Source of the DNA: a virus
Taxonomy: Duplodnaviria > Heunggongvirae > Uroviricota > Caudoviricetes
DNA: 42,888 bases
Virus record (IMG/VR): IMGVR_UViG_2734482773_000006
Strand: one strand, 5' to 3'
A program made the translations under genes and the position numbers. Positions 2,903 to 42,888 of the stretch are shown here, in pieces (position 1 is the stretch's first letter; the number at the start of each line of letters is the position of its first letter). The notes under the pieces were generated by a model. That model did not search any database. It saw only the letters and a list, made by a program, of their open reading frames with translations, and was not told the DNA's origin.

Positions 2903-3502
2903 TCAGAATTTATAACCGACACCCACGATGAAACCGTCAGTGCGCCAGTCACCACTGCCGGAGCCTTCATAAGCAATATCAATGGCCACGGATTCGGTCG
3001 GGTTAAACTGCACGCCAGCCCCCCACGCCAGAGACGTGTTGCTGTGGCGACCGTCATCACTTCCGGTCAGCACATCGTGCGTTTTCCCCTTGTTGTCAGT
3101 TACGCGAAGATAATCCCCGGAGAAAGTCGACACACGGCTGTAAGCTACACCCGCCATCGCATACGCGCTGAACCATTCATTCACGCGCACAGACGGCCCC
3201 GCCATTACGCTGAACCAGCGGTTACGAACGGAATCTTCATGCCAGCGGGTATCGCTGTAACGGGTCAGCTGGCGATTCTTGTCTCCTGCATAGCTGAATG
3301 ACGTCACCAGCCCCAGTGTGTCCGTAAACTCATAACGGTATTTCACGTTAATCCCGTTCAGATCATCACTGCCGGGGACGTTCGTCGAGGCATGAAGATA
3401 CCCCGCGCTCAGCGTGGACTGATGTTCAGACGCCCATGCAGGCGCACCGGATACGGCCAGACAAATGGCTGCGGACAAAATTGCTGCACAAACTTTACGC
3501 AT
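2903..3502 (-). CDS. lom: Outer membrane protein Lom (Ail/Lom family)
   Basis: 199-aa ORF with signal peptide, ends in aromatic residue (beta-barrel); position between J and stf as in lambda. Confidence 0.9.
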   Translation of the reverse strand: MRKVCAAILSAAICLAVSGAPAWASEHQSTLSAGYLHASTNVPGSDDLNGINVKYRYEFTDTLGLVTSFSYAGDKNRQLTRYSDTRWHEDSVRNRWFSVMAGPSVRVNEWFSAYAMAGVAYSRVSTFSGDYLRVTDNKGKTHDVLTGSDDGRHSNTSLAWGAGVQFNPTESVAIDIAYEGSGSGDWRTDGFIVGVGYKF

Positions 3503-23342: not shown

Positions 23343-23636
23343 ATGAAAAAAATGTTGTTTTCTGCCGCTCTGGCAATGCTTATTACAGGATGTGCTCAAC
23401 AGACGTTTACTGTTGGAAACAAACCGACAGCAGTAACACCAAAGGAAACCATCACCCATCACTTCTTCGTTTCGGGAATTGGACAGGAGAAAACTGTTGA
23501 TGCAGCCAAAATTTGTGGCGGCGCAGAAAATGTTGTTAAAACAGAAACCCAGCAAACATTCGTAAATGGATTGCTCGGTTTTATTACTTTAGGCATTTAT
23601 ACTCCGCTGGAAGCGCGTGTGTATTGCTCACAATAA
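23343..23636 (+). CDS. bor: Bor lipoprotein (serum resistance-associated lysogenic conversion protein)
   Basis: ORF track 23295..23636; internal Met begins MKKMLFSAALAMLITGCAQQTF (lipobox LITGC); ends EARVYCSQ as lambda Bor; convergent with Rz as in lambda. Confidence 0.9.
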   Translation: MKKMLFSAALAMLITGCAQQTFTVGNKPTAVTPKETITHHFFVSGIGQEKTVDAAKICGGAENVVKTETQQTFVNGLLGFITLGIYTPLEARVYCSQ

Positions 23637-24883: not shown

Positions 24884-25427
24884 CGTATCGCAAAAAAGCA
24901 GAAACGTAACAGACTCGGAGTCAGTGAATAACTCAGGTATTGAGTTATCAGCTAATATCGAGACTCAAAAAATGGAAAAACCAGCTCGACGGCGGGTTTA
25001 AGCTGTGTGACGAAGTAACCACTCTTAACAGCATAACCAATTTTTTACGTACGTAAACCACTGAATGATATTTATGAGAATGCTACCGAGTGTTCAAAAC
25101 ACCACCACAAATACATAAGAAAACCTCAACAAATAACCAATAAATAATTTCCGGCGTTATTTTTAGTTAATTTAAATTAAACCACCGAATTATAGACCCC
25201 CCCATAAATAACAGCCATTAATATAAATTAGCTAATAGGTTTATTTTTGTTCAAATAAGAGCCATAAATAGGTTTCGATAGAAAAAGTTCAGATAAAAAT
25301 AGAGATCTACTTCACAAATTAAATGAGAAACTAAAACTTACATCTTGAAATAATCACATTGATTAGATGAATATTTATCGCGCAGTGACATCATTTTTTA
25401 ATAATAGTTCAAAAAAAAGGGCTCACG
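24884..25427 (+). promoter_or_regulatory. AT-rich upstream regulatory region of the porin gene (putative promoter and regulator binding sites)
   Basis: ~540 bp non-coding, strongly AT-rich, directly upstream of the porin start; no tRNA-like structure recognised by eye. Confidence 0.35.
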
Positions 25428-26525
25428 ATGAAAAAATTAACAGTGGCAATTTCTGCTGTAGCTGCATCAGTACTGATGGCGATGTCTGCTCAGGCAGCTG
25501 AAATTTATAATAAAGACAGTAACAAGCTGGATCTGTACGGAAAAGTTAATGCCAAGCACTACTTTTCCTCTAACGATGCAGATGATGGTGATACTACTTA
25601 TGTTCGTCTGGGCTTCAAAGGCGAAACCCAAATCAACGATCAGCTGACTGGTTTCGGTCAGTGGGAATATGAATTCAAAGGCAACCGCGCTGAATCTCAA
25701 GGTTCCTCCAAAGACAAAACCCGTCTTGCATTTGCAGGCCTGAAATTCGGTGACTACGGCTCAATCGATTACGGCCGTAACTACGGTGTAGCATACGACA
25801 TCGGTGCGTGGACTGACGTTCTGCCAGAATTCGGTGGCGATACCTGGACCCAAACAGATGTGTTCATGACTGGTCGCACCACTGGTGTTGCAACCTATCG
25901 TAACAACGACTTCTTTGGTCTGGTTGATGGTCTGAACTTTGCTGCTCAGTACCAAGGCAAAAACGATCGTAGCGATTTCGATAACTACACCGAAGGTAAC
26001 GGTGATGGCTTCGGTTTCTCTGCTACCTATGAATACGAAGGGTTCGGTATCGGTGCAACTTATGCGAAATCTGATCGTACCGACACTCAAGTTAATGCAG
26101 GGAAAGTTCTTCCTGAAGTATTTGCTTCCGGTAAAAATGCAGAAGTTTGGGCCGCAGGTCTGAAATATGACGCTAACAACATTTACCTGGCCACTACCTA
26201 TTCTGAAACCCAGAATATGACTGTATTTGCTGATCACTTCGTTGCTAATAAAGCTCAAAACTTCGAAGCTGTTGCACAATATCAGTTCGATTTCGGTCTG
26301 CGTCCGTCCGTTGCTTACCTGCAATCTAAAGGTAAGGATCTTGGAGTATGGGGCGATCAGGACTTAGTCAAATATGTTGATGTAGGTGCAACCTATTACT
26401 TCAACAAAAATATGTCTACTTTCGTTGATTACAAAATCAACCTGCTTGACAAAAATGACTTCACTAAAGCACTCGGTGTAAGCACTGATGACATCGTTGC
26501 TGTAGGTCTGGTTTACCAGTTCTAA
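25428..26525 (+). CDS. nmpC: Outer membrane general porin, NmpC/Lc (OmpC/OmpF family), intact
   Basis: 365-aa ORF with signal peptide [23 protein letters not shown] and C-terminal VGLVYQF; matches DLP12 NmpC / phage PA-2 Lc as recalled; lies between Q and S on the opposite strand. Confidence 0.9.
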
Positions 26526-27970: not shown

Positions 27971-28133
27971 GACTCCTCCTTGCTGCCAGTCGCAACCATT
28001 TTTTATCAACCAGGCTAGCGGTATACCCGAGCAGTGTTGGTATTTCGGATGGTTTCAGTTCAGGCTTACGCTTACGACGATTTGGTACTCTGTAGATGTT
28101 TCCGTTCATGACACGAATAAGCGGTGTAGCCAT
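27966..28133 (-). CDS. Small basic ORF (~55 aa) translationally coupled between ybcN and ybcO (YlcG-like position)
   Basis: Read by eye; ATG overlaps ybcN stop, stop overlaps ybcO start; below the 60-aa ORF track threshold. Confidence 0.35.
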
Positions 28134-28588
28134 TACGCCTCCTGCTTGTCGCGCAGCAGCTGGAACTCGCAGCTCTGCGGAATAGTCAGGTGGCAGCCAA
28201 TATTCATCGCCCAGGCTTCAACCTTACACAGGAAGACATACATCTCTCCGGTATCAAGATTGGAGGTATGGCGTAACGACTGGATAGTAGTGATTTCGCC
28301 GGTTACGACATCAACCAGGTCCTTGGTTTCATAACCGAGGTATGTGTGTTTGAGAGCATCTTTTACCCATGCTGCGGTAGCGAACGATTTCCCCCTGCTG
28401 ATGAGGTATTCACTGATTTCGCTGTACCACATGTGGCTGAGTGCATTCTGGGAAAGACTGCGTTTCTCACGCCACGGTTTAAGCACCATGCGAAAGCATT
28501 TTCCGTCCTCCAGATAAGGCTGGATCTGCTGGCCGATAGCGGTGAAGTTGCCGCGATGTAATTTGATGCCGTCTTGTGGGAGGTTCAC
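28133..28588 (-). CDS. ybcN: YbcN-like protein (DLP12 YbcN family, nin region)
   Basis: 151 aa, begins [35 protein letters not shown]; matches DLP12 YbcN as recalled. Confidence 0.8.
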
Positions 28589-28813
28589 GCTTCACCTCCG
28601 CAGAGGTCAAACGTTGGATGCAAAAAAACGCAGGTGCATTTCTGCATCTGTGAATGGAGAAGATAGGTTGGATTGTATGTGCGCATAAACGTCCCCGTTT
28701 AGCGCAGAAGTCACCGGAGTTGTTCAGGCTCCGGCTTATTAATATTGCCTACTTACAATTAATTTTTCAACTGTTAGAAACTTATAATTAGCTGTCTCTT
28801 TGTAACTATCAAT

Positions 28814-30709
28814 TTAATTATTTTTCTTTAACTTGAAATTTCTTCCCATTGCTAGTGTTCTTCGAAGATTCGAATCATAAGCTGGTTGATAATATCTATC
28901 ATAAAAATCCTTAATTGTCTGATGGTAAGTATCCAGCATCAAACCATAAAACCCCCTAACCTTAAGATAATCCACCAAGGGAAATAAATAATCATCAGTC
29001 TGAACATCAGTATCAATATTATTTTTTTGTTTTTTAACTTCAAATTTGTATAAGTTTAACTCACCCTTATCCATCGTGCATGAAAAAAGGTCGTCAAAAA
29101 TCAAATCAATTTCTGTCATAGGAACTCGTTCTTTTCCAGACATTATAGGTAGAATATCAATACCTAAGAGCGAACCTAATACAAAGTCGTAATGAAGCGA
29201 AATCACTGAGTCATTCGATGTCGAGTTGCCTTTGATAAATACTCTACTTAGTGCCGAGTCAAAAACATTCTCAACTCTCTCTCTCGTCATGTTTGCGACA
29301 TCTACAACTCCCATATCACGAGAAGCTTTTATTGTGATTTCATCTATAAATGCTTTGGAATCTAGTGAATGTAAAAACAACATGAAGTTATCTAACTGTT
29401 CAGAGCATTTAATAGCCACCATAAGATTTTCGTATATATCTTTTTTATACTCAATCGGTAAATTTGCTACCGCAAAAGCAGCATAAAATTCTTGCACTGA
29501 TTTATGCAGAAAAACATACCTATTATTTCCCTCAGGTTGGATAAGGCAAGTTATCTCAATAAGATCATCTATAAAGTTTGATGCATCTTCTTTAAGATAA
29601 CCTTCTGTTTCAATAGCATCTTCAGCATATCTAAGCAACTCCTCTCCCCAAAACTCAAATTTCTCCTCAATCAGTGCGTTATAGCAAATAGCTGAAAAAC
29701 ACAATTTAGCTTTTTCACCAATAATGTTTGATTTTTTCTCGCGCGTATATACTTTTATTTTATCATGCCTTGCATATAAGGTGTCAAAGAGGCTTCGATA
29801 AAACTCTATTATATTATTTGGAATATCATTCATATAAGGATAACAATAATACAAAAGAGTAACTAAAATTGGATTGCAAATAGTTCCCTCAAGTTCTTCT
29901 TTATCACATAGTAAATCCGCCAAGACTTTAAACGAGGCATCACTACTTGAGAATCTGTCATTTTTCGATAAAGAATGAAGAATACAAATCTTATCAGAAA
30001 TATTTAGCTTATCTATAAAAATATTATACACATCAGTAGTATAACATATATCTGTATTTGGTCTCGTTGTTGCGATAATTGGTGTGTTAAAATGATAATG
30101 AATGTTTTTTATTTCATTCATCATCATAGTTCGCTCTTCATGTTTAACCTCATCAAATCCATCCAACATTAAAACGACTCTTTGGGATTGCAGTAATATT
30201 TTCAAGCTATCCTCTGAACACCCCACACCAAATGAATTAAGAATGTCTGCCAGATAAGCAATAATATTTGCATTCTTCACCCTTCTTAATTCAATAAAAA
30301 AAGGCATCCGTTCTGATTTTTTTATTTCCTCGCTAAACAACTTGCGTAAAATAGTACTTTTCCCTTGCCCCGCTATACCGACTATATTTACAATACCATG
30401 AAATGGTAAAGTGACCCCATCTTTTATAACGACCTTGTCTTTATTAGATGCCACCTCAACAGTTAACGGATAATAAATATCATCTAAAAAAATATCATAA
30501 TCAGCGTTGTGCAAAGTTCTCATTTTCAGAGATGGTAGCACATGCTTTCTTAAATAATTTTCTCTTCCGAGGGGATCATTTAATTGTTCGAGTATAACCT
30601 TGCCTTCATCTAGGTCCCTAGCCCAAGGTTTAGAGAGCAATACTTCTGTTATTTTTTCCGCAGCTTTTCCTACTGTGCTATTAATAATAGTCGCAAGAAA
30701 CTCATCCAT
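28814..30709 (-). CDS. NACHT/STAND-family P-loop NTPase (bacterial NLR-like), candidate single-gene anti-phage defence protein
   Basis: ORF track 28814..30766 (650 aa); likely start at internal Met (30709) preceded by GGTGA; Walker A GIAGQGKST (ORF aa 130-138), Walker B VVLMLDGFDE (197-206), TTRP (233-236); visibly AT-rich gene with AT-rich non-coding flanks. Confidence 0.7.
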   Translation of the reverse strand: MDEFLATIINSTVGKAAEKITEVLLSKPWARDLDEGKVILEQLNDPLGRENYLRKHVLPSLKMRTLHNADYDIFLDDIYYPLTVEVASNKDKVVIKDGVTLPFHGIVNIVGIAGQGKSTILRKLFSEEIKKSERMPFFIELRRVKNANIIAYLADILNSFGVGCSEDSLKILLQSQRVVLMLDGFDEVKHEERTMMMNEIKNIHYHFNTPIIATTRPNTDICYTTDVYNIFIDKLNISDKICILHSLSKNDRFSSSDASFKVLADLLCDKEELEGTICNPILVTLLYYCYPYMNDIPNNIIEFYRSLFDTLYARHDKIKVYTREKKSNIIGEKAKLCFSAICYNALIEEKFEFWGEELLRYAEDAIETEGYLKEDASNFIDDLIEITCLIQPEGNNRYVFLHKSVQEFYAAFAVANLPIEYKKDIYENLMVAIKCSEQLDNFMLFLHSLDSKAFIDEITIKASRDMGVVDVANMTRERVENVFDSALSRVFIKGNSTSNDSVISLHYDFVLGSLLGIDILPIMSGKERVPMTEIDLIFDDLFSCTMDKGELNLYKFEVKKQKNNIDTDVQTDDYLFPLVDYLKVRGFYGLMLDTYHQTIKDFYDRYYQPAYDSNLRRTLAMGRNFKLKKNN

Positions 30710-31097
30710 TTTTTCACCACATTCATTAACCAATACGTGGTGCATTCTTACAAGACTCAGTAACAATTGTCAATCATAGGTTTTCGCATGATTGCAAAAC
30801 GCCATAAACAATTGTAGCACCATAATTTTAAACACTATATAATATACAACCTTCCTACAAGCATTCAGTACATCGCTTAATCACAGGGCTTGAATATATA
30901 GTAAGGAATCGATATTAATCACCTCATCTACTTTAAACATCTTACACACCTATAATTTATAATAGTCAACACGAGGTCATCATATTAAACATGCAATTAC
31001 AAACATTCATTTTTATATAAATTTTCATGATTTAACCGTAGGGCGACGGTAATAAATTTCATATACAAGGATTTAAGCTCCCATACGTTTTCTATTA

Positions 31098-31277
31098 TTA
31101 AAAATAACATACCGTTCGCCAGACCTTACCATCAATGACTAAGATTCCTGCCCGCGCCATTTTAGCCGCAGCCTGATTTATGCTGGTTACGGTTGCGCCT
31201 GTTACCGCGGCAACGTCCTGTGCACAGAAGCTCTTATGCGTCCCCAGGTAATGAATAATTGCCTCTTTGCCCGTCAT
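31098..31277 (-). pseudogene. ren: Truncated ren gene (59 codons), broken at the junction with the AT-rich island
   Basis: Read by eye: MTGKEAIIHYLGTHKSFCAQDVAAVTGATVTSINQAAAKMARAGILVIDGKVWRTVCYF then stop; matches the lambda Ren N-terminus as recalled and ends ~37 codons early; ATG overlaps P stop. Confidence 0.6.
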
Positions 31278-31975
31278 ACACTTGCTCCTTTCAGTCCGAA
31301 CTTAGCTTTAATTTCTGCGATCTTCGCCAGAGCCTGTGCACGATTTAGAGGTCTACCGCCCATAACAGGAAGTTGTTTTACTGGTTCAGGTATCGTCTCA
31401 CCACGGTTAATTCGCGCTGTCATACAGGCCAGTTCATCGGCAGCCTTGCGCCGTAATTCCGCGTCAGTCAACGCATTGGCCCGCATGTTCTGGTACAGGT
31501 TGGTAACCAACCAGTAGTGCGCGTTTGATTTCCATGGATAAGACTCTGCGTCCGGATACAGGCCACGCTTCCGGCAATACTCGTAAACCATATCAACCAG
31601 CTCGCTGGCGTTTGGCAGCCCGGCGGTAACGGATGTTTCTTCCCGGCACCAGGCAACAAACTGCCCGGGAGATGGCAGGAATGGTCGATTCTGCCGACGG
31701 GCTACGCGCATTCCTGCGTTAACCTGTTCCATTGTGGTGATCCCATTTTCCCGGAAAGCCAGCACCCACTGGCGGCGGATTTCGTTCAGTTCGTTCTGGT
31801 CCCGGTTAGCCAAGCTCGCCGGGAAAGTTGCCAGTAACTGGCTGAACACACCGTTGATGATCTGCGCTACCTGCTGTACCTGCGGCTTTTCGTCGTACTG
31901 TTCCGGCATGTTGTTGGCGATCCGACGCATCTGCTCACGGTCAAAGTTAACCATCTGTGCGGCGATGTTTTTCAT
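31274..31975 (-). CDS. P: Replication protein P (DnaB helicase loader)
   Basis: 233 aa, MKNIAAQMVNFDREQMRRIANNMPEQYDEKPQVQQ, lambda P. Confidence 0.95.
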   Translation of the reverse strand: MKNIAAQMVNFDREQMRRIANNMPEQYDEKPQVQQVAQIINGVFSQLLATFPASLANRDQNELNEIRRQWVLAFRENGITTMEQVNAGMRVARRQNRPFLPSPGQFVAWCREETSVTAGLPNASELVDMVYEYCRKRGLYPDAESYPWKSNAHYWLVTNLYQNMRANALTDAELRRKAADELACMTARINRGETIPEPVKQLPVMGGRPLNRAQALAKIAEIKAKFGLKGASV

Positions 31976-33785: not shown

Positions 33786-33895
33786 TATCAATTCCTATTG
33801 GTATTGCAATGAATGAATAATAGCAATGCGTATTAATCCAAGCAATAGCAAAACGTGTTTTGACCATCAATACGCAAGCGTATAAATTAAAACTT
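33786..33895. promoter_or_regulatory. Right operator/promoter region (OR, PR, PRM-like) between divergent cro and cI
   Basis: 110-bp divergent intergenic region with repeated (T/A)TAGCAAT / TTGCAAT motifs, also found in the presumed OL region. Confidence 0.5.
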
Positions 33896-34588
33896 ATGAA
33901 AAAAGAAACTCTTGCTGATCGCTTAAACCTAGCGATGGAACAATCTGGAATGTCTCAAGGCGCTCTTGCAAAGGCGTCTGGCGTAGCTCAACCCACAATC
34001 TGGAGACTGACAAGCGGCAACGCTCGCGGCTCAACAAAAATTGTTGAAATAGCTAATGCATTGGGTGTTCGAACAGAATGGCTCTCATCAGGCATAGGCC
34101 CGATGAGAAATGACGGTCAACAATCAGGGAAGCCTGCTGTCAGCCATTCAAAATACTTCAAGATTGACGTTCTTGATATAGAAGTGAGTGCCGGGCCGGG
34201 AGTCATCAACCGTGAGTTTGTAGAAGTTCTACGCTCGGTTGAGTACTCGTTTGACGATGCTCGTCACATGTTCGATGGTAGGAAGGCAGAAAATATCCGC
34301 ATCATTAACGTACGCGGTGACAGCATGTCAGGAACGATCGAACCAGGTGATCTGCTGTTCGTTGATATCACGGTTAAATCTTTCGACGGTGATGGTATCT
34401 ATGCGTTTCTGTATGACGACACCGCCCATGTAAAGCGCCTGCAAATGATGAAGGATAAGCTACTGGTTATCTCTGATAACAAGAGCTACTCACCGTGGGA
34501 CCCGATCGAGAAAGACGAGATGAACCGGGTATTCATATTCGGTAAGGTTATTGGGAGCATGCCGCAGACGTACAGAAAACACGGATAA
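33896..34588 (+). CDS. cI: CI-type prophage repressor (N-terminal HTH, C-terminal S24 LexA-like peptidase domain)
   Basis: ORF track 33860..34588 (TTG); probable ATG at MKKETLADRLN (may be leaderless as lambda cI); HTH GMSQGALAKASGVAQPTIWRL; S24-like GDSM and K residues. Confidence 0.85.
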   Translation: MKKETLADRLNLAMEQSGMSQGALAKASGVAQPTIWRLTSGNARGSTKIVEIANALGVRTEWLSSGIGPMRNDGQQSGKPAVSHSKYFKIDVLDIEVSAGPGVINREFVEVLRSVEYSFDDARHMFDGRKAENIRIINVRGDSMSGTIEPGDLLFVDITVKSFDGDGIYAFLYDDTAHVKRLQMMKDKLLVISDNKSYSPWDPIEKDEMNRVFIFGKVIGSMPQTYRKHG

Positions 34589-34946: not shown

Positions 34947-35390
34947 ATGAAACACGATTATTACGAAGCTCCAAACCTAAATGATAAAATTGCAAAGGCG
35001 GCAAAATCATTTTGTTTGCACTCCAGTGCGTCTTCCCAGCTAGCAGGTATATCTGGAAAAAGATGGGACATGCTACAATCAAGTGGTAGCAGTGGGTCTG
35101 GGAGTGATAACATGCCTGAAAAAGTTGCAAAACTGGAGTCCGATGTTGCTCATATCAAACGAGACGTTGATGAACTTAAAACAGACGTTAAAGCTATCGA
35201 CAAAAATATGATAACTATTCTTGCACGTCTGGACTCTATAAAAGAATCCTTAACAAACAAGCCATCAAGTGATGCTGTCGATAGAAAGATTTCAGACGCA
35301 AAGCTTGCGGTATTGCTTGGTGTTCCAGCAATCATCGCTGCAGGAACAGGACTTTATAAGCTATCAATGTACTTTTTCTTTAGTGCTTAA
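34947..35390 (+). CDS. Hypothetical coiled-coil protein with C-terminal transmembrane anchor (rexB position); probable shorter 92-aa form from 35112
   Basis: ORF track 147 aa; internal ATG at 35112 has GGAG upstream; C-terminal hydrophobic helix AVLLGVPAIIAAGTGLYKLSMYFFF; heptad-like charged region. Confidence 0.45.
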   Translation: MKHDYYEAPNLNDKIAKAAKSFCLHSSASSQLAGISGKRWDMLQSSGSSGSGSDNMPEKVAKLESDVAHIKRDVDELKTDVKAIDKNMITILARLDSIKESLTNKPSSDAVDRKISDAKLAVLLGVPAIIAAGTGLYKLSMYFFFSA

Positions 35391-37986: not shown

Positions 37987-38165
37987 AACATCCTCACGAT
38001 AATATCCGCGTAGGCACGATCACTTTCGTCTACTCCGTTACGAAGCGAGGCTGGGTATTTCCCGGCCTTTCTGTTATCCGAAATCCCCTGAAAGCACAGC
38101 GGCTGGCTGAGGAGATAAATAATAAACGGGGAGCTGTATGCACAAAGCATCTCCCGTTCAGTTAA
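37977..38165 (+). CDS. Lambda orf60a-like small protein
   Basis: 62 aa, [30 protein letters not shown]; position after exo as in lambda. Confidence 0.7.
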
Positions 38166-38329
38166 GAACGAGTATCGAGATGGCACATAGCCTCGCTCAA
38201 ATTGGAGTCAGGTTTGTGCCAATACCAGTAGAAACAGACGAAGAATTTCATACGTTAGCCGCATCCCTTTCACAAAAGCTGGAAATGATGGTGGCGAAAG
38301 CAGAAGCAGATGAGAGAGACCAGGTATGA
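38138..38329 (+). CDS. Lambda orf63-like small protein
   Basis: 63-aa ORF in the lambda order. Confidence 0.65.
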   Translation: MHKASPVQLRTSIEMAHSLAQIGVRFVPIPVETDEEFHTLAASLSQKLEMMVAKAEADERDQV

Positions 38330-38405
38330 CAACCACGGAATGCATTTTTCTGGCAGCGGGCTTCATATTCTGTGTGCTTATGCTTGCCGACATGGGACTT
38401 GTTCA

Positions 38406-38621
38406 ATGACACCTCAGCAGGAAAACGCCCTTCGCAGCATTGCCCGTCAGGCTAATTCTGAAATCAAAAAAGCCAGACAGCAGTTTCCGGATAAAAACGT
38501 CGATGACATTTGCCGTAGCGTACTGAAGAAGCACCGCGAAACGGTAACGCTGATGGGATTCACACCGACTCATTTAAGCCTGGCAATCGGCATGTTAAAC
38601 GGCGTCTTTAAGGAACGATGA
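38406..38621 (+). CDS. Lambda orf61-like small protein
   Basis: ORF track 38310..38621; probable start at internal MTPQQENALRSIARQ. Confidence 0.6.
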   Translation: MTPQQENALRSIARQANSEIKKARQQFPDKNVDDICRSVLKKHRETVTLMGFTPTHLSLAIGMLNGVFKER

Positions 38622-39151: not shown

Positions 39152-39754
39152 TCATTCAGTATCATCACGCGCGGTCTGTGCATATGTCACTACCGCACCT
39201 AATATATTAATTTTCTTTTCAACATAGATAATATTATCGTACTCATAATTGCCATACGGATAGCAAATGCGAATATTCTCATGTAGATCGGGGTCATCCA
39301 CCTCAGCTCCAGAACAACTTTTTGAACTACCGGAAGTATACCGATACGGTGCAACATAAGACGATGTCTCTCCAGGCAAAAAATAAGTTAGTGTCGTAAG
39401 GGGTATAATCAGAAAAAATCCTGCAAATATGCACATCCCTGCATAAACCTTAAGGTATGCTGACAGACTCTTCCAGCCTCTTTGTTTTACTATCCCCTTC
39501 TTAACCCAAAACAGAGATAACAGAAAAGCTATTCCCATGCTAAACAGAATGTAATAGTGGGATATACTCTGATTAAGAAACGTGACCCTGTAGATATCTG
39601 CCCGCCACCAGAAGAAAAGGAAAATAAAGATCAGCCCTGAAACTGTCATGCAAATCAAATAAGGATACGAATCTTTTTTCATGTTTAGCGCCCATAAAAT
39701 TTTTCCTGACCCGGACAAATTTACCATCCATTTTTTGCGCAGAAAATAGCTCAT
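39152..39754 (-). CDS. Hypothetical integral membrane protein (three predicted TM helices plus Cys-containing C-terminal domain), AT-rich moron
   Basis: 200-aa ORF on the opposite strand to neighbours; hydrophobic segments LICMTVSGLIFIFLFFWW, YYILFSMGIAFLLSLFWV, VYAGMCIFAGFFLIIPLTTLTYFL; start codon uncertain. Confidence 0.5.
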   Translation of the reverse strand: MSYFLRKKWMVNLSGSGKILWALNMKKDSYPYLICMTVSGLIFIFLFFWWRADIYRVTFLNQSISHYYILFSMGIAFLLSLFWVKKGIVKQRGWKSLSAYLKVYAGMCIFAGFFLIIPLTTLTYFLPGETSSYVAPYRYTSGSSKSCSGAEVDDPDLHENIRICYPYGNYEYDNIIYVEKKINILGAVVTYAQTARDDTE

Positions 39755-40203: not shown

Positions 40204-40422
40204 ATGTACTTGACACTTCAGGAGTGGAACGCACGCCAGCGACGCCCAAGAAGCCTTGAAACAGTTCGTCGATGGGTACGCGAGTGCAGGATATTCCCTC
40301 CTCCGGTTAAGGATGGAAGAGAGTATCTGTTCCACGAATCAGCGGTAAAGGTTGACTTAAATCGACCAGTAACAGGTAGCCTTTTGAAGAGGATCAGAAA
40401 TGGGAAGAAGGCGAAGTCATGA
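40204..40422 (+). CDS. xis: Excisionase Xis
   Basis: 72 aa, MYLTLQEWNARQRRPRSLETVRRWVRECRIFPPPVKDGREYLFHESAV, lambda Xis. Confidence 0.95.
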   Translation: MYLTLQEWNARQRRPRSLETVRRWVRECRIFPPPVKDGREYLFHESAVKVDLNRPVTGSLLKRIRNGKKAKS

Positions 40423-41470
40423 GCGCCGGGATTTACCCCCTAACCTTTATATAAGAAACAATGGATATTACTGCTACAGGGACCCAAGGACGGGTAAAGA
40501 GTTTGGATTAGGCAGAGACAGGCGAATCGCAATCACTGAAGCCATACAGGCCAACATTGAGTTATTTTCAGGACACAAACACAAGCCTCTGACAGCGAGA
40601 ATCAACAGTGATAATTCCGTTACGTTACATTCATGGCTTGATCGCTACGAAAAAATCCTGGCCAGCAGAGGAATCAAGCAGAAGACACTCATAAATTACA
40701 TGAGCAAAATTAAAGCAATAAGGAGGGGTCTGCCTGATGCTCCACTTGAAGACATCACCACAAAAGAAATTGCGGCAATGCTCAATGGATACATAGACGA
40801 GGGCAAGGCGGCGTCAGCCAAGTTAATCAGATCAACACTGAGCGATGCATTCCGAGAGGCAATAGCTGAAGGCCATATAACAACAAACCCTGTCGCTGCC
40901 ACTCGCGCAGCAAAATCAGAGGTAAGGAGATCAAGACTTACGGCTGACGAATACCTGAAAATTTATCAAGCAGCAGAATCATCACCATGTTGGCTCAGAC
41001 TTGCAATGGAACTGGCTGTTGTTACCGGGCAACGAGTTGGTGATTTATGCGAAATGAAGTGGTCTGATATCGTAGATGGATATCTTTATGTCGAGCAAAG
41101 CAAAACAGGCGTAAAAATTGCCATCCCAACAGCATTGCATGTTGATGCTCTCGGAATATCAATGAAGGAAACACTTGATAAATGCAAAGAGATTCTTGGC
41201 GGAGAAACCATAATTGCATCTACTCGTCGCGAACCGCTTTCATCCGGCACAGTATCAAGGTATTTTATGCGCGCACGAAAAGCATCAGGTCTTTCCTTCG
41301 AAGGGGATCCGCCTACCTTTCACGAGTTGCGCAGTTTGTCTGCAAGACTCTATGAGAAGCAGATAAGCGATAAGTTTGCTCAACATCTTCTCGGGCATAA
41401 GTCGGACACCATGGCATCACAGTATCGTGATGACAGAGGCAGGGAGTGGGACAAAATTGAAATCAAATAA
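40400..41470 (+). CDS. int: Integrase Int (tyrosine recombinase)
   Basis: 356 aa, MGRRRSHERRDLPPNLYIRNNGYYCYRDPRTGKEFGLGRDRRIAI, lambda Int; overlaps xis. Confidence 0.95.
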   Translation: MGRRRSHERRDLPPNLYIRNNGYYCYRDPRTGKEFGLGRDRRIAITEAIQANIELFSGHKHKPLTARINSDNSVTLHSWLDRYEKILASRGIKQKTLINYMSKIKAIRRGLPDAPLEDITTKEIAAMLNGYIDEGKAASAKLIRSTLSDAFREAIAEGHITTNPVAATRAAKSEVRRSRLTADEYLKIYQAAESSPCWLRLAMELAVVTGQRVGDLCEMKWSDIVDGYLYVEQSKTGVKIAIPTALHVDALGISMKETLDKCKEILGGETIIASTRREPLSSGTVSRYFMRARKASGLSFEGDPPTFHELRSLSARLYEKQISDKFAQHLLGHKSDTMASQYRDDRGREWDKIEIK

Positions 41471-41604: not shown

Positions 41605-42888
41605 GTGAACACATTTTCAGTTTCCCGTCTGGCGCTGGCATTGGCTTTTGGCGTGACGCTGACCGCCTGTAGCTCAACCCCGCCCGATCAACGTCCTTCT
41701 GATCAAACCGCGCCTGGTACCTCTTCTCGCCCGATTCTGTCGGCAAAAGAAGCGCAGAATTTCGATGCTCAACACTATTTTGCATCCCTGACACCAGGTG
41801 CTGCAGCGTGGAATCCTTCCCCGATTACCCTGCCTGCGCAACCTGACTTTGTTGTCGGCCCGGCGGGCACTCAAGGTGTAACGCATACCACGATTCAGGC
41901 GGCGGTAGATGCGGCAATTATCAAGCGTACCAACAAGCGCCAGTATATTGCCGTGATGCCTGGTGAGTATCAGGGAACGGTATATGTCCCTGCCGCTCCG
42001 GGTGGAATTACTCTGTACGGTACAGGTGAAAAACCGATTGATGTGAAGATTGGGCTTTCCCTTGATGGTGGCATGAGCCCTGCCGACTGGCGTCACGACG
42101 TCAACCCGCGCGGCAAATATATGCCAGGTAAACCAGCGTGGTATATGTACGATAGCTGCCAGAGCAAACGCAGCGACAGTATCGGTGTTCTCTGCTCTGC
42201 GGTCTTCTGGTCACAAAACAATGGCCTGCAACTGCAAAATCTGACCATCGAAAACACGCTGGGCGATAGCGTAGATGCAGGTAACCATCCGGCGGTGGCA
42301 CTGCGTACTGATGGTGACCAGGTACAGATTAACAACGTTAACATTCTCGGTCGTCAGAACACCTTCTTTGTCACCAACAGCGGTGTGCAGAACCGTCTGG
42401 AAACCAACCGTCAGCCGCGTACGCTGGTGACCAACAGCTACATTGAAGGGGATGTGGATATCGTTTCTGGTCGCGGCGCAGTGGTGTTCGATAACACCGA
42501 ATTCCGCGTGGTGAACTCACGTACTCAGCAAGAAGCGTATGTGTTTGCACCGGCTACGCTGTCCAACATTTACTACGGTTTCCTCGCCGTAAACAGCCGT
42601 TTCAATGCTTTCGGTGATGGTGTGGCGCAACTGGGCCGCTCGCTGGATGTTGATGCCAATACCAACGGTCAGGTGGTGATCCGTGATAGCGCCATCAACG
42701 AAGGTTTTAACACGGCGAAACCGTGGGCCGATGCGGTGATCTCTAATCGTCCGTTTGCGGGTAATACCGGCAGCGTAGATGATAACGACGAAATACAGCG
42801 CAATCTGAATGACACTAACTACAACCGCATGTGGGAATACAATAACCGCGGCGTGGGTAGTAAAGTGGTTGCAGAGGCGAAGAAGTAA
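41605..42888 (+). CDS. ybhC: Host YbhC-like outer membrane lipoprotein (pectinesterase-fold acyl-CoA thioesterase); chromosomal gene flanking lambda attB
   Basis: 427-aa ORF with lipoprotein signal LTAC; visibly different composition from the prophage; known neighbour of attB-lambda in E. coli. Confidence 0.85.
   Translation: MNTFSVSRLALALAFGVTLTACSSTPPDQRPSDQTAPGTSSRPILSAKEAQNFDAQHYFASLTPGAAAWNPSPITLPAQPDFVVGPAGTQGVTHTTIQAAVDAAIIKRTNKRQYIAVMPGEYQGTVYVPAAPGGITLYGTGEKPIDVKIGLSLDGGMSPADWRHDVNPRGKYMPGKPAWYMYDSCQSKRSDSIGVLCSAVFWSQNNGLQLQNLTIENTLGDSVDAGNHPAVALRTDGDQVQINNVNILGRQNTFFVTNSGVQNRLETNRQPRTLVTNSYIEGDVDIVSGRGAVVFDNTEFRVVNSRTQQEAYVFAPATLSNIYYGFLAVNSRFNAFGDGVAQLGRSLDVDANTNGQVVIRDSAINEGFNTAKPWADAVISNRPFAGNTGSVDDNDEIQRNLNDTNYNRMWEYNNRGVGSKVVAEAKK

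Follow-up and report, generated by a model that had tools for sequence, protein, structure and literature searches.

A NACHT gene as the probable defence cargo of an AT-rich island between ren and the nin genes of a lambda-like prophage

The IMG/VR virus record IMGVR_UViG_2734482773_000006, a stretch of 42,888 nucleotides referred to here as the window, is a nearly complete lambda-like prophage with its genes on the minus strand, in which an AT-rich island occupies the junction between ren and the nin region. The sole long open reading frame (ORF) of the island encodes a NACHT protein, a bacterial relative of the NLR immune sensors of animals, and the position it occupies is a slot that holds many different cargoes in related prophages. 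We consider it likely that the block at 28735–31110 is a moron in an insertion hotspot, that its NACHT payload is of a known kind, and that it serves in defence by the mechanism proposed below.

The limits of the island follow from homology and composition. In phage orientation, on the minus strand, the gene order is O (32991–31972), P (31975–31274), a short ren frame (31277–31098), a 650-residue ORF and ybcN (28588–28133), followed on the same strand by ninE, ybcO, rusA, ylcG and a QuuD-type Q gene; to the left of the slot, P is the last backbone gene that is still intact. Homology to both lambda and DLP12 of E. coli MG1655 runs through P and ren, and both BLAST matches end at 31111; across 31110 the guanine-plus-cytosine (GC) content drops from 0.55 to 0.26 in 100-bp bins. 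Homology to DLP12 restarts at 28734, 146 bp upstream of the ybcN start, and across 28735 the GC content rises from 0.21 to 0.51 in bins of the same size. The island proper is thus 28735–31110, or 2376 bp. Its GC content of 0.322, compared with 0.49–0.51 in the 2-kb flanks, lies ~3.5 standard deviations below that of windows of the same size (716 other 2376-bp windows: mean 0.525, standard deviation 0.058, minimum 0.407), making it the most AT-rich stretch of the whole window. An earlier note on this DNA had described an AT-rich block that begins where ren ends and contains only the NACHT gene, and on both points it agrees with our results: the compositional step coincides with the end of homology at 31111, and the ORF list shows no other long frame. 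It had also extended the block to the start of ybcN, which is too far, as the block stops at 28735 and a hairpin and ylcH lie between; the interval first given, 28589–31277, also takes in the ren stub and this conserved hairpin/ylcH segment. The alignment to lambda and DLP12 and the GC plot that the note had proposed give breakpoints at 31111 (left) and 28734 (right) and a sharp compositional discontinuity at both edges. A search of the island against Rfam returned a chance-level match (E 0.5), and no family was assigned. The features of the region are as follows.

31274–31975, minus strand: replication gene P (Pfam Phage_lambda_P, E 7e-62; 94% nucleotide identity to lambda up to 31111)
31098–31277, minus strand: ren stub of 59 residues (alignment with lambda Ren, 96 residues, and DLP12 RenD)
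31105–31113, no strand assigned: left junction between ren homology and AT-rich DNA (BLAST ends at 31111; GC step)
30710–31097, minus strand: AT-rich non-coding leader, GC 0.31 (composition)
30744–30773, minus strand: sigma-70-type promoter-like site, TTGACA, 18-nt spacer, TG-n-AAGAAT (10 of 12 matches, extended −10)
28814–30709, minus strand: clade-14 bacterial NACHT (NLR-related) gene, 631 residues, starting MDEFL (Pfam NACHT; alignment with bacterial NACHT, or bNACHT, proteins)
28735–28813, minus strand: AT-rich 3′ spacer, GC 0.24 (composition; 100% identical among carriers)
28714–28734, no strand assigned: hairpin CCGGAG-N9-CTCCGG, the right boundary of the slot (folds at −10.7 kcal/mol)
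28585–28686, minus strand: ylcH small ORF, 33 codons (DLP12 annotation)
28626–28652, minus strand: structured U-rich element inside ylcH (−13.5 kcal/mol, z −4.0; terminator-like in a scan)
28133–28588, minus strand: ybcN, NinB family, first nin-module gene to the right of the slot (Pfam NinB at E 4.7e-5, narrowly under the curated cutoff; RefSeq homologue YbcN)

The payload belongs to a recognizable family. The Pfam NACHT model matches the protein at E 3e-11 (43.9 bits against a cutoff of 26.7), and its Walker A (GIAGQGKST, K117) and Walker B (LMLDGFDE) motifs both align with those of bNACHT01, bNACHT02, bNACHT11 and bNACHT12; residues G111–T119 and D183–E187 are invariant or nearly so among 40 homologues. 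Identity to these four proteins is collinear from residue 1 over ~400 residues (bNACHT11, 41%; bNACHT01, 38%; bNACHT02, 37%; bNACHT12, 35%), and each of them gave phage resistance in assays (10.1101/2022.07.19.500537, sequences of Table S2). The SNaCT1 domain was defined on bNACHT01, and proteins of this type were placed in clade 14 (Kibby et al., 10.1101/2022.07.19.500537). Database searching returned a well-populated family of single-domain NACHT proteins of 610–650 residues in Enterobacterales, Vibrio, Aeromonas and Pseudoalteromonas. An AlphaFold2 model built on the 40 homologues (predicted local distance difference test score 87.6, predicted template-modelling score 0.85) found its best PDB matches with Foldseek in NLRC4 (4KXF; E 1e-12, template-modelling score 0.50) and then NOD2 (5IRM); the top structural matches of the bNACHT11 structure are also eukaryotic NLRs, including NLRC4 (10.1101/2024.12.17.629029). 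Judged by both sequence and modelled fold, the window protein is a member of the clade-14 bNACHT family. A sequence search of PDB chains gave no match, the bNACHT11 structure 9ORF evidently being outside the set searched. PADLOC likewise matched no model to the protein at E ≤ 0.01, a silence that is uninformative because PADLOC 2.0, which has no clade-14 bNACHT models, also misses relatives at ~36–41% identity. Assignment to the Avs/AVAST group of STAND NTPases was considered and rejected, given the lack of a PADLOC match and the weak Foldseek match to Avs4 (E 1.5e-5, template-modelling score 0.22).

The C-terminal part of the protein lacks repeats and forms a compact alpha/beta domain in the model. 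When a subfamily profile of residues 411–631 was compared with the C-termini of SNaCT1-positive relatives, hhalign aligned them at 98.8% probability (E 1.4e-16, 206 columns), and on this profile match the region (~411–631) is best described as a diverged SNaCT-type domain. It is also the part that evolves fastest (22% identity to distant homologues, compared with 46% for the NACHT module), which is the pattern described by Kibby et al. (10.1101/2022.07.19.500537). At the other end, the N-terminus MDEFLATII keeps D2 and lacks P3, as do the active bNACHT01 (MDIIQ) and bNACHT12 (MDLVF), and residues 3–61 are predicted to be helical. Like bNACHT11 and bNACHT01, then, the window protein is the product of a single gene of ~610–640 codons, with a short N-terminal extension starting MD, the same Walker motifs, a fold resembling NLRC4, and a short, non-repeat, fast-diverging SNaCT-type domain at its C-terminus. 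It differs from them in belonging to a separate subfamily, whose members of at least 50% identity lie in lambdoid-type prophages where their context was examined, whereas relatives at ~40% lie on Klebsiella plasmids or in chromosomes; in its N-terminus, MDEFL rather than MDPIT; and in a C-terminus too diverged for the Pfam SNaCT1 model.

The island occurs in 9 of 5426 complete E. coli genomes. Its protein cluster, which the assembly index lists in 591 blocks, counts 382 sequences (E. coli, E. marmotae and Salmonella), and RefSeq annotates the protein as NACHT domain-containing. The payload, which the earlier note had called new, is therefore new relative to lambda and DLP12 but belongs to a known clade-14 family that RefSeq already annotates in these genomes. 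Six carriers were compared with the window segment by segment: the island is 99.0–100% identical, whereas P, the ren stub and ybcN are 90–98% identical, and the carriers differ in repressor and immunity region, O allele, Q type and lysis genes. By this comparison the island is younger than its backbones or has moved between them; as the note had asked, it was sought in other prophages, and it does appear to move as a unit. In E. coli 2014C-4135 (L022 3792–5688) the NACHT gene is frameshifted, and in strain 720632 (L003 6792–8483) it is 3′-truncated, with IS600 and ISKpn26 insertions nearby.

Three short contigs carry a second allele, whose protein is 85% identical to that of the window. Between the end of P and the hairpin, this allele and the window align collinearly at 81% nucleotide identity, with 92% at the P end, 97% in the hairpin and 73% in the neighbouring DNA. 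The ren junction is identical in all carriers and in this diverged allele, which argues that the insertion is old rather than recent in the window prophage. Alleles of the ren stub differ patchily, and the last ~28 bp before the junction are common to all, with one private substitution in carrier L002; this combination favours recombination between homologous flanks, or gene conversion there, over repeated insertion, and on the same grounds independent site-specific insertions were rejected as the source of the differing stub alleles. The comparison supports the view that an old unit, made up of ren stub, promoter, NACHT gene and hairpin, has been passed between lambdoid backbones by recombination. 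Homologues at 51–66% identity have no flanking DNA in common with the window, so the cassette is a unit only within the two closest allele lineages.

Between these two lineages the ratio of nonsynonymous to synonymous substitution (dN/dS) is 0.11 at a synonymous divergence (dS) of 0.69, in every domain, and by this measure the NACHT gene is under purifying selection. Its maximal frame (30766–28814) makes up the 650-residue ORF, and RefSeq starts the homologue at the ATG corresponding to 30709, giving 631 residues. The promoter-like site is the best-scoring one in a scan of the region and is predicted to lie 35 nt upstream of this ATG; an upstream ATG that would give 643 residues overlaps the −10 element, hence would lie upstream of the transcript start, and the start at 30709 is favoured. 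The diverged allele retains the −35 hexamer and the TG motif but not the distal leader: identity is 82% over the promoter-proximal 100 bp and 59% in the distal part. Comparison with the second allele revealed no conserved small ORF in the leader. Homologues of the gene (42–85% amino acid identity; Escherichia, Enterobacter and metagenomes) have a GC content of 0.33–0.36 within backbones of ~0.50; since low GC is shared across the family, it is a long-standing family property and does not date the acquisition. No near-identical copy from a low-GC organism was present among 216 protein matches; among the matches listed, all are gamma-proteobacterial.

The left edge of the island has cost the prophage part of ren. 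Residues 1–55 of the stub match lambda Ren (50 of 55 identical) and are followed by CYF and a stop, close to the ~56 matching residues counted in the earlier note; a Ren of full length (~96 residues, collinear with lambda Ren) is absent, and RefSeq annotates ren in the carrier genomes as a pseudogene without its C-terminus. In the second allele lineage the stub is frameshifted and 71% identical, a value close to that of the non-coding spacers (59–73%), next to a P end that is far better conserved. These comparisons indicate that the stub is a decaying remnant, and the idea that its 59 residues make a functional short protein was rejected on the frameshift and on this difference from P. In lambda only 74 bp separate the end of ren (40570) from the start of ninB (40644), in keeping with the note's statement that ren directly precedes the nin region. 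Prophages of this kind can do without ren, as its truncation here shows; among the 60 contigs surveyed below, 24 have no detected ren homologue, and ren is shortened in several more. At the position of the lambda rexAB genes, downstream of a CI-like repressor (33860–34588), the window has a 147-residue ORF without a Pfam match (34947–35390, plus strand); no rex genes are present in the window, which fits ren being dispensable here.

The right edge is formed by the hairpin CCGGAGCCTGAACAACTCCGG, with which homology to DLP12 restarts, followed by ylcH. In most carriers 1482 extra bases lie between the NACHT gene and ybcN and encode a Bro-N/P22AR-C antirepressor-like protein and an 83-residue protein. 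This cassette (L001 8884–10364 in E. coli 2014C-3307) is absent from the window and is bracketed by a direct repeat of the hairpin/ylcH segment, the two copies being 1482 bp apart; the short form without it is found in the window, in strains DAM and ANT and in one draft genome (L033). The window switches from copy a to copy b within a 21-bp identical stretch, as would be left by a deletion through recombination between the copies or by the reciprocal insertion. Related antirepressor-like genes also occur in other cargoes of the slot (contigs L039, L047, L085, L088 and L091). The hairpin and the U-rich element occupy the position of the lambda terminator between ren and ninB, which we take to be tR2, and we read them as the conserved start of the nin module. 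The predicted structures at this edge probably stop transcription of the cassette from entering the nin and Q genes. A terminator that keeps constitutive cargo transcription off Q in the lysogen would explain why cargo accumulates upstream of it.

The same position holds other genes in other prophages of this type. The P-ren and ylcH-ybcN flanks are present in 3668 of the 5426 complete E. coli genomes, where the cargo between them includes two small genes of no known kind, an uncharacterised 186-residue protein with a lipoprotein, other unknown pairs, the DLP12 set, a 472-residue reverse-strand protein with a weak match to HEC-07, and a TagO-like protein with a HEPN protein. We also surveyed 80 IMG/VR contigs that encode YbcN at 97% identity or more, 60 of which have P upstream within reach. 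Their intervals measure 974–5699 bp at a GC content of 0.33–0.46 and fall into 21 cargo clusters (85% identity, 80% mutual coverage), all of them below the GC content of the backbone. The slot holds Kiwa (KwaA, E 5e-88; KwaB, E 7e-149) and PD-Lambda-1 (E 5e-198, beside an HD-domain protein); other cargo comprises a PRTase-CE protein with a NADAR protein, a DUF4145 protein, an inverse autotransporter of intimin/invasin type, emrE with ybcK, and a Pua-like metallophosphoesterase with a HAD hydrolase that matches a PADLOC model (E 4.5e-57). Homology to the window restarts at the start of the hairpin (28729–28734) in 55 of the 60 contigs; in four others it restarts at 28706, and in one at 28748. 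The left edges scatter: the outermost lies 61 nt before the ren start codon, within the 3′ part of P, and the others fall at ren nucleotides 4, 14, 29, 79, 106 and 246 and at 266–283. The earlier note's description of a recurrent moron insertion hotspot is thus borne out, both by these 21 clusters and by the many cargoes in E. coli genomes. In one contig (L043, IMG/VR 3300029610_000148) Kiwa lies on the reverse strand and ren breaks off near nucleotide 106, a second case, independent of the first, in which defence cargo has truncated ren.

More distant NACHT homologues keep to a similar place. Those at 51–66% identity (five proteins on six prophage-like contigs) lie between replication genes and nin/RusA/YlcG, also in those cases in which the replication genes belong to another type. 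A homologue at 42% comes from a plasmid-like contig, and Klebsiella plasmids carry relatives at ~40%. In a locus separate from the 60-contig survey, an Enterobacter cloacae prophage (L013 1019–7905) has, after P, a row of four genes for a PDC-S15 FRG-domain protein, a Ser/Thr kinase, PifA (E 2.5e-296) and a 62%-identical NACHT protein, which by its gene content is a small defence island inside a prophage.

DLP12 uses the same slot: the hairpin, ylcH and ybcN form its right boundary too, and the nin module that follows is likewise made up of ninE, ybcO, rusA, ylcG and quuD. The MG1655 annotation (renD split by IS3, emrE, ylcJ, ybcK, ybcL, ybcM, ylcH, ybcN) confirms that its cargo differs, as the note had said, with emrE, ylcJ, ybcK, ybcL and ybcM in place of the NACHT gene; its ren is full length apart from IS3, whereas that of the window is cut at codon 55. 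The slot also resembles the defence hotspots of P2 and P4 in being a fixed position in temperate phages, with conserved flanking genes and diverse, mostly defence-related cargo exchanged among relatives, but it lies in lambdoid phages, between P/ren and ylcH/ybcN, and one of its edges is a conserved hairpin while the other is ragged. We found no description of the slot, or of NACHT genes in lambdoid prophages, in the literature, our coverage of which was incomplete, so that an earlier description may exist.

Morons of lambdoid phages include lom, bor and rexAB of lambda and those of HK97 and HK022; the definition of a moron reportedly goes back to Hendrix and colleagues. The island lies between genes that are adjacent in lambda and has a base composition distinct from the backbone. 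A promoter-like site precedes its gene, and its 3′ end has a hairpin without a U-tract and a predicted terminator-like structure (z −4.0). It thus resembles the known lambdoid morons in being an extra gene between two genes that are neighbours in a relative, with its own promoter-like site, a structured 3′ end, deviant composition and presumed expression from the prophage. It departs from them in having removed part of ren, and in its slot having a fixed right boundary and many alternative cargoes.

Because the window protein has the same three-part layout as bNACHT11, we take the mechanism of bNACHT11 as the working one. In that protein the SNaCT domain binds several unrelated phage proteins by beta-augmentation, and binding drives assembly of a heptamer (Robbins et al., 10.1101/2024.12.17.629029); an N-terminal extension of ~45 residues with the consensus MDPIT causes plasmolysis and death of the infected cell (10.1101/2024.12.17.629029). 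In the course of events that we propose, the arrival of the cassette or a later rearrangement would have removed the last 41 ren codons by illegitimate recombination. The NACHT gene would be transcribed in the lysogen, apparently from its own predicted sigma-70 promoter, and judging from the homology to bNACHT01, bNACHT02, bNACHT11 and bNACHT12 its product would stay idle until the C-terminal SNaCT domain binds a protein of a superinfecting phage. Nucleoside triphosphate-bound NACHT modules may then oligomerise, as in the bNACHT11 heptamer, and the clustered short N-terminal extensions may trigger membrane failure (plasmolysis), so that the infected cell would die before the invader multiplies. 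Such a death would protect sister lysogens and thereby the prophage.

Several observations weigh against this reading. The window protein is not among the 27 bNACHT genes assayed by Kibby et al., and the Pfam SNaCT1 model gives no match to it; its MDEFL departs from the MDPIT consensus, in which P3 is required for bNACHT11 (10.1101/2024.12.17.629029). At the right edge, the boundary hairpin has no U-tract and the U-run of the second structure lies inside the stem. No close homologue was found among 50,697 sequenced phage genomes by DNA or by protein, so that no active phage is documented as a carrier, and the NACHT gene is frameshifted or truncated in two of the nine complete-genome carriers, so loss does occur.

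These last cases bear on the question of whether the NACHT gene does anything for its host. It could be a non-functional or silenced passenger, such as a drifting AT-rich xenogeneic gene, that gives the lysogen no phage resistance, as the broken copies in 2014C-4135 and 720632, the degraded state of some carrier prophages and the island GC content of 0.32 would suggest. A GC content of 0.32 is typical of silenced DNA in E. coli. However, a dN/dS of 0.11 over a dS of 0.69 in every domain is hard to reconcile with a passenger, as are the intact catalytic motifs, the conserved promoter-like site and the listing of the protein in 591 blocks of the assembly index, and we regard this explanation as unlikely. 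Low GC could alternatively reflect recent import into the window prophage from a low-GC donor, in line with the sharp compositional step at both edges. Yet every homologue examined has a GC content of 0.33–0.36 in backbones of ~0.50, alleles separated by a dS of 0.69 keep both composition and junction, and all 21 cargo types of the slot fall below the backbone, at 0.33–0.46; a recent import therefore has very little to recommend it.

The regularity of the right boundary, which 55 of 60 contigs place at the same hairpin across 21 cargoes, and the direct hairpin/ylcH repeat around the Bro-N/P22AR-C cassette might instead suggest a site-specific mobile cassette that, in the manner of a small transposon or an integron cassette, targets the hairpin and entered different prophages in independent events. 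We consider this highly improbable. The ORF list and Pfam revealed no recombinase or transposase among the island ORFs, and at its ends there are no terminal inverted repeats or target-site duplications beyond short matches of the kind expected from AT-rich noise. Left junctions vary in position between the end of P and the last part of ren; one and the same ren junction recurs in all carriers of the NACHT island, including the 19%-diverged allele, which indicates one event followed by inheritance and recombination in the flanks; the 51–66% homologues, moreover, lack common flanking DNA. A moron that entered a shared slot once and was then passed between backbones by recombination is the reading we prefer.

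As a tentative extension of it, the slot may be an undescribed lambdoid counterpart of the P2 and P4 hotspots, in which the hairpin and the U-rich element serve both as an insulator and as a fixed anchor for the exchange of cassettes by homologous recombination. If so, its uncharacterised cargoes would be candidate defence systems (the two-gene sets of contigs L006 and L025, the 472-residue HEC-07-like protein, and the Pua-like phosphoesterase with the HAD hydrolase), and the NACHT subfamily would be a prophage-specialised sensor tuned against competing temperate phages. Members of the bacterial NLR-related sensor group defend against DNA phages and RNA phages, and the window protein extends this group by a prophage-borne subfamily. 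With several known defence systems in it (Kiwa, PD-Lambda-1, PifA and NACHT), the slot could be mined for new ones in the manner of the P2 and P4 hotspots, given that lambda-like prophages are very common in E. coli and that its right boundary is precise; it also holds cargo unrelated to defence, namely the EmrE efflux pump and the intimin-like adhesin.

Other genes of interest lie elsewhere in the window. A lambda-type integrase is encoded at 40400–41470 and is followed at 41605–42888 by a chromosomal gene with a pectinesterase domain, which is taken to be ybhC, so that the prophage would be integrated beside it. In the low-GC kilobase (0.38) between the recombination genes and int is a 200-residue ORF without a Pfam match (39152–39754, minus strand). 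The closest relative among complete genomes has, near the site of this ORF, a DGQHR-domain protein that is absent from the window, and no alignment was obtained between the two over 38133–38585. An intact porin gene of OmpC/NmpC type (25428–26525, plus strand; Pfam Porin_1, E 2e-156) is found immediately after Q, in the opposite orientation, behind an AT-rich upstream region (25050–25400, GC 0.29), and looks like a second moron of the window prophage; in DLP12 of K-12 the corresponding nmpC is broken by IS5. Finally, when mapped onto an annotated relative, a homologue of the Iss/Bor serum-resistance lipoprotein (23343–23636, plus strand) and one of the Ail/Lom outer-membrane protein (2903–3502, minus strand) are found at the classical moron positions of lambda.

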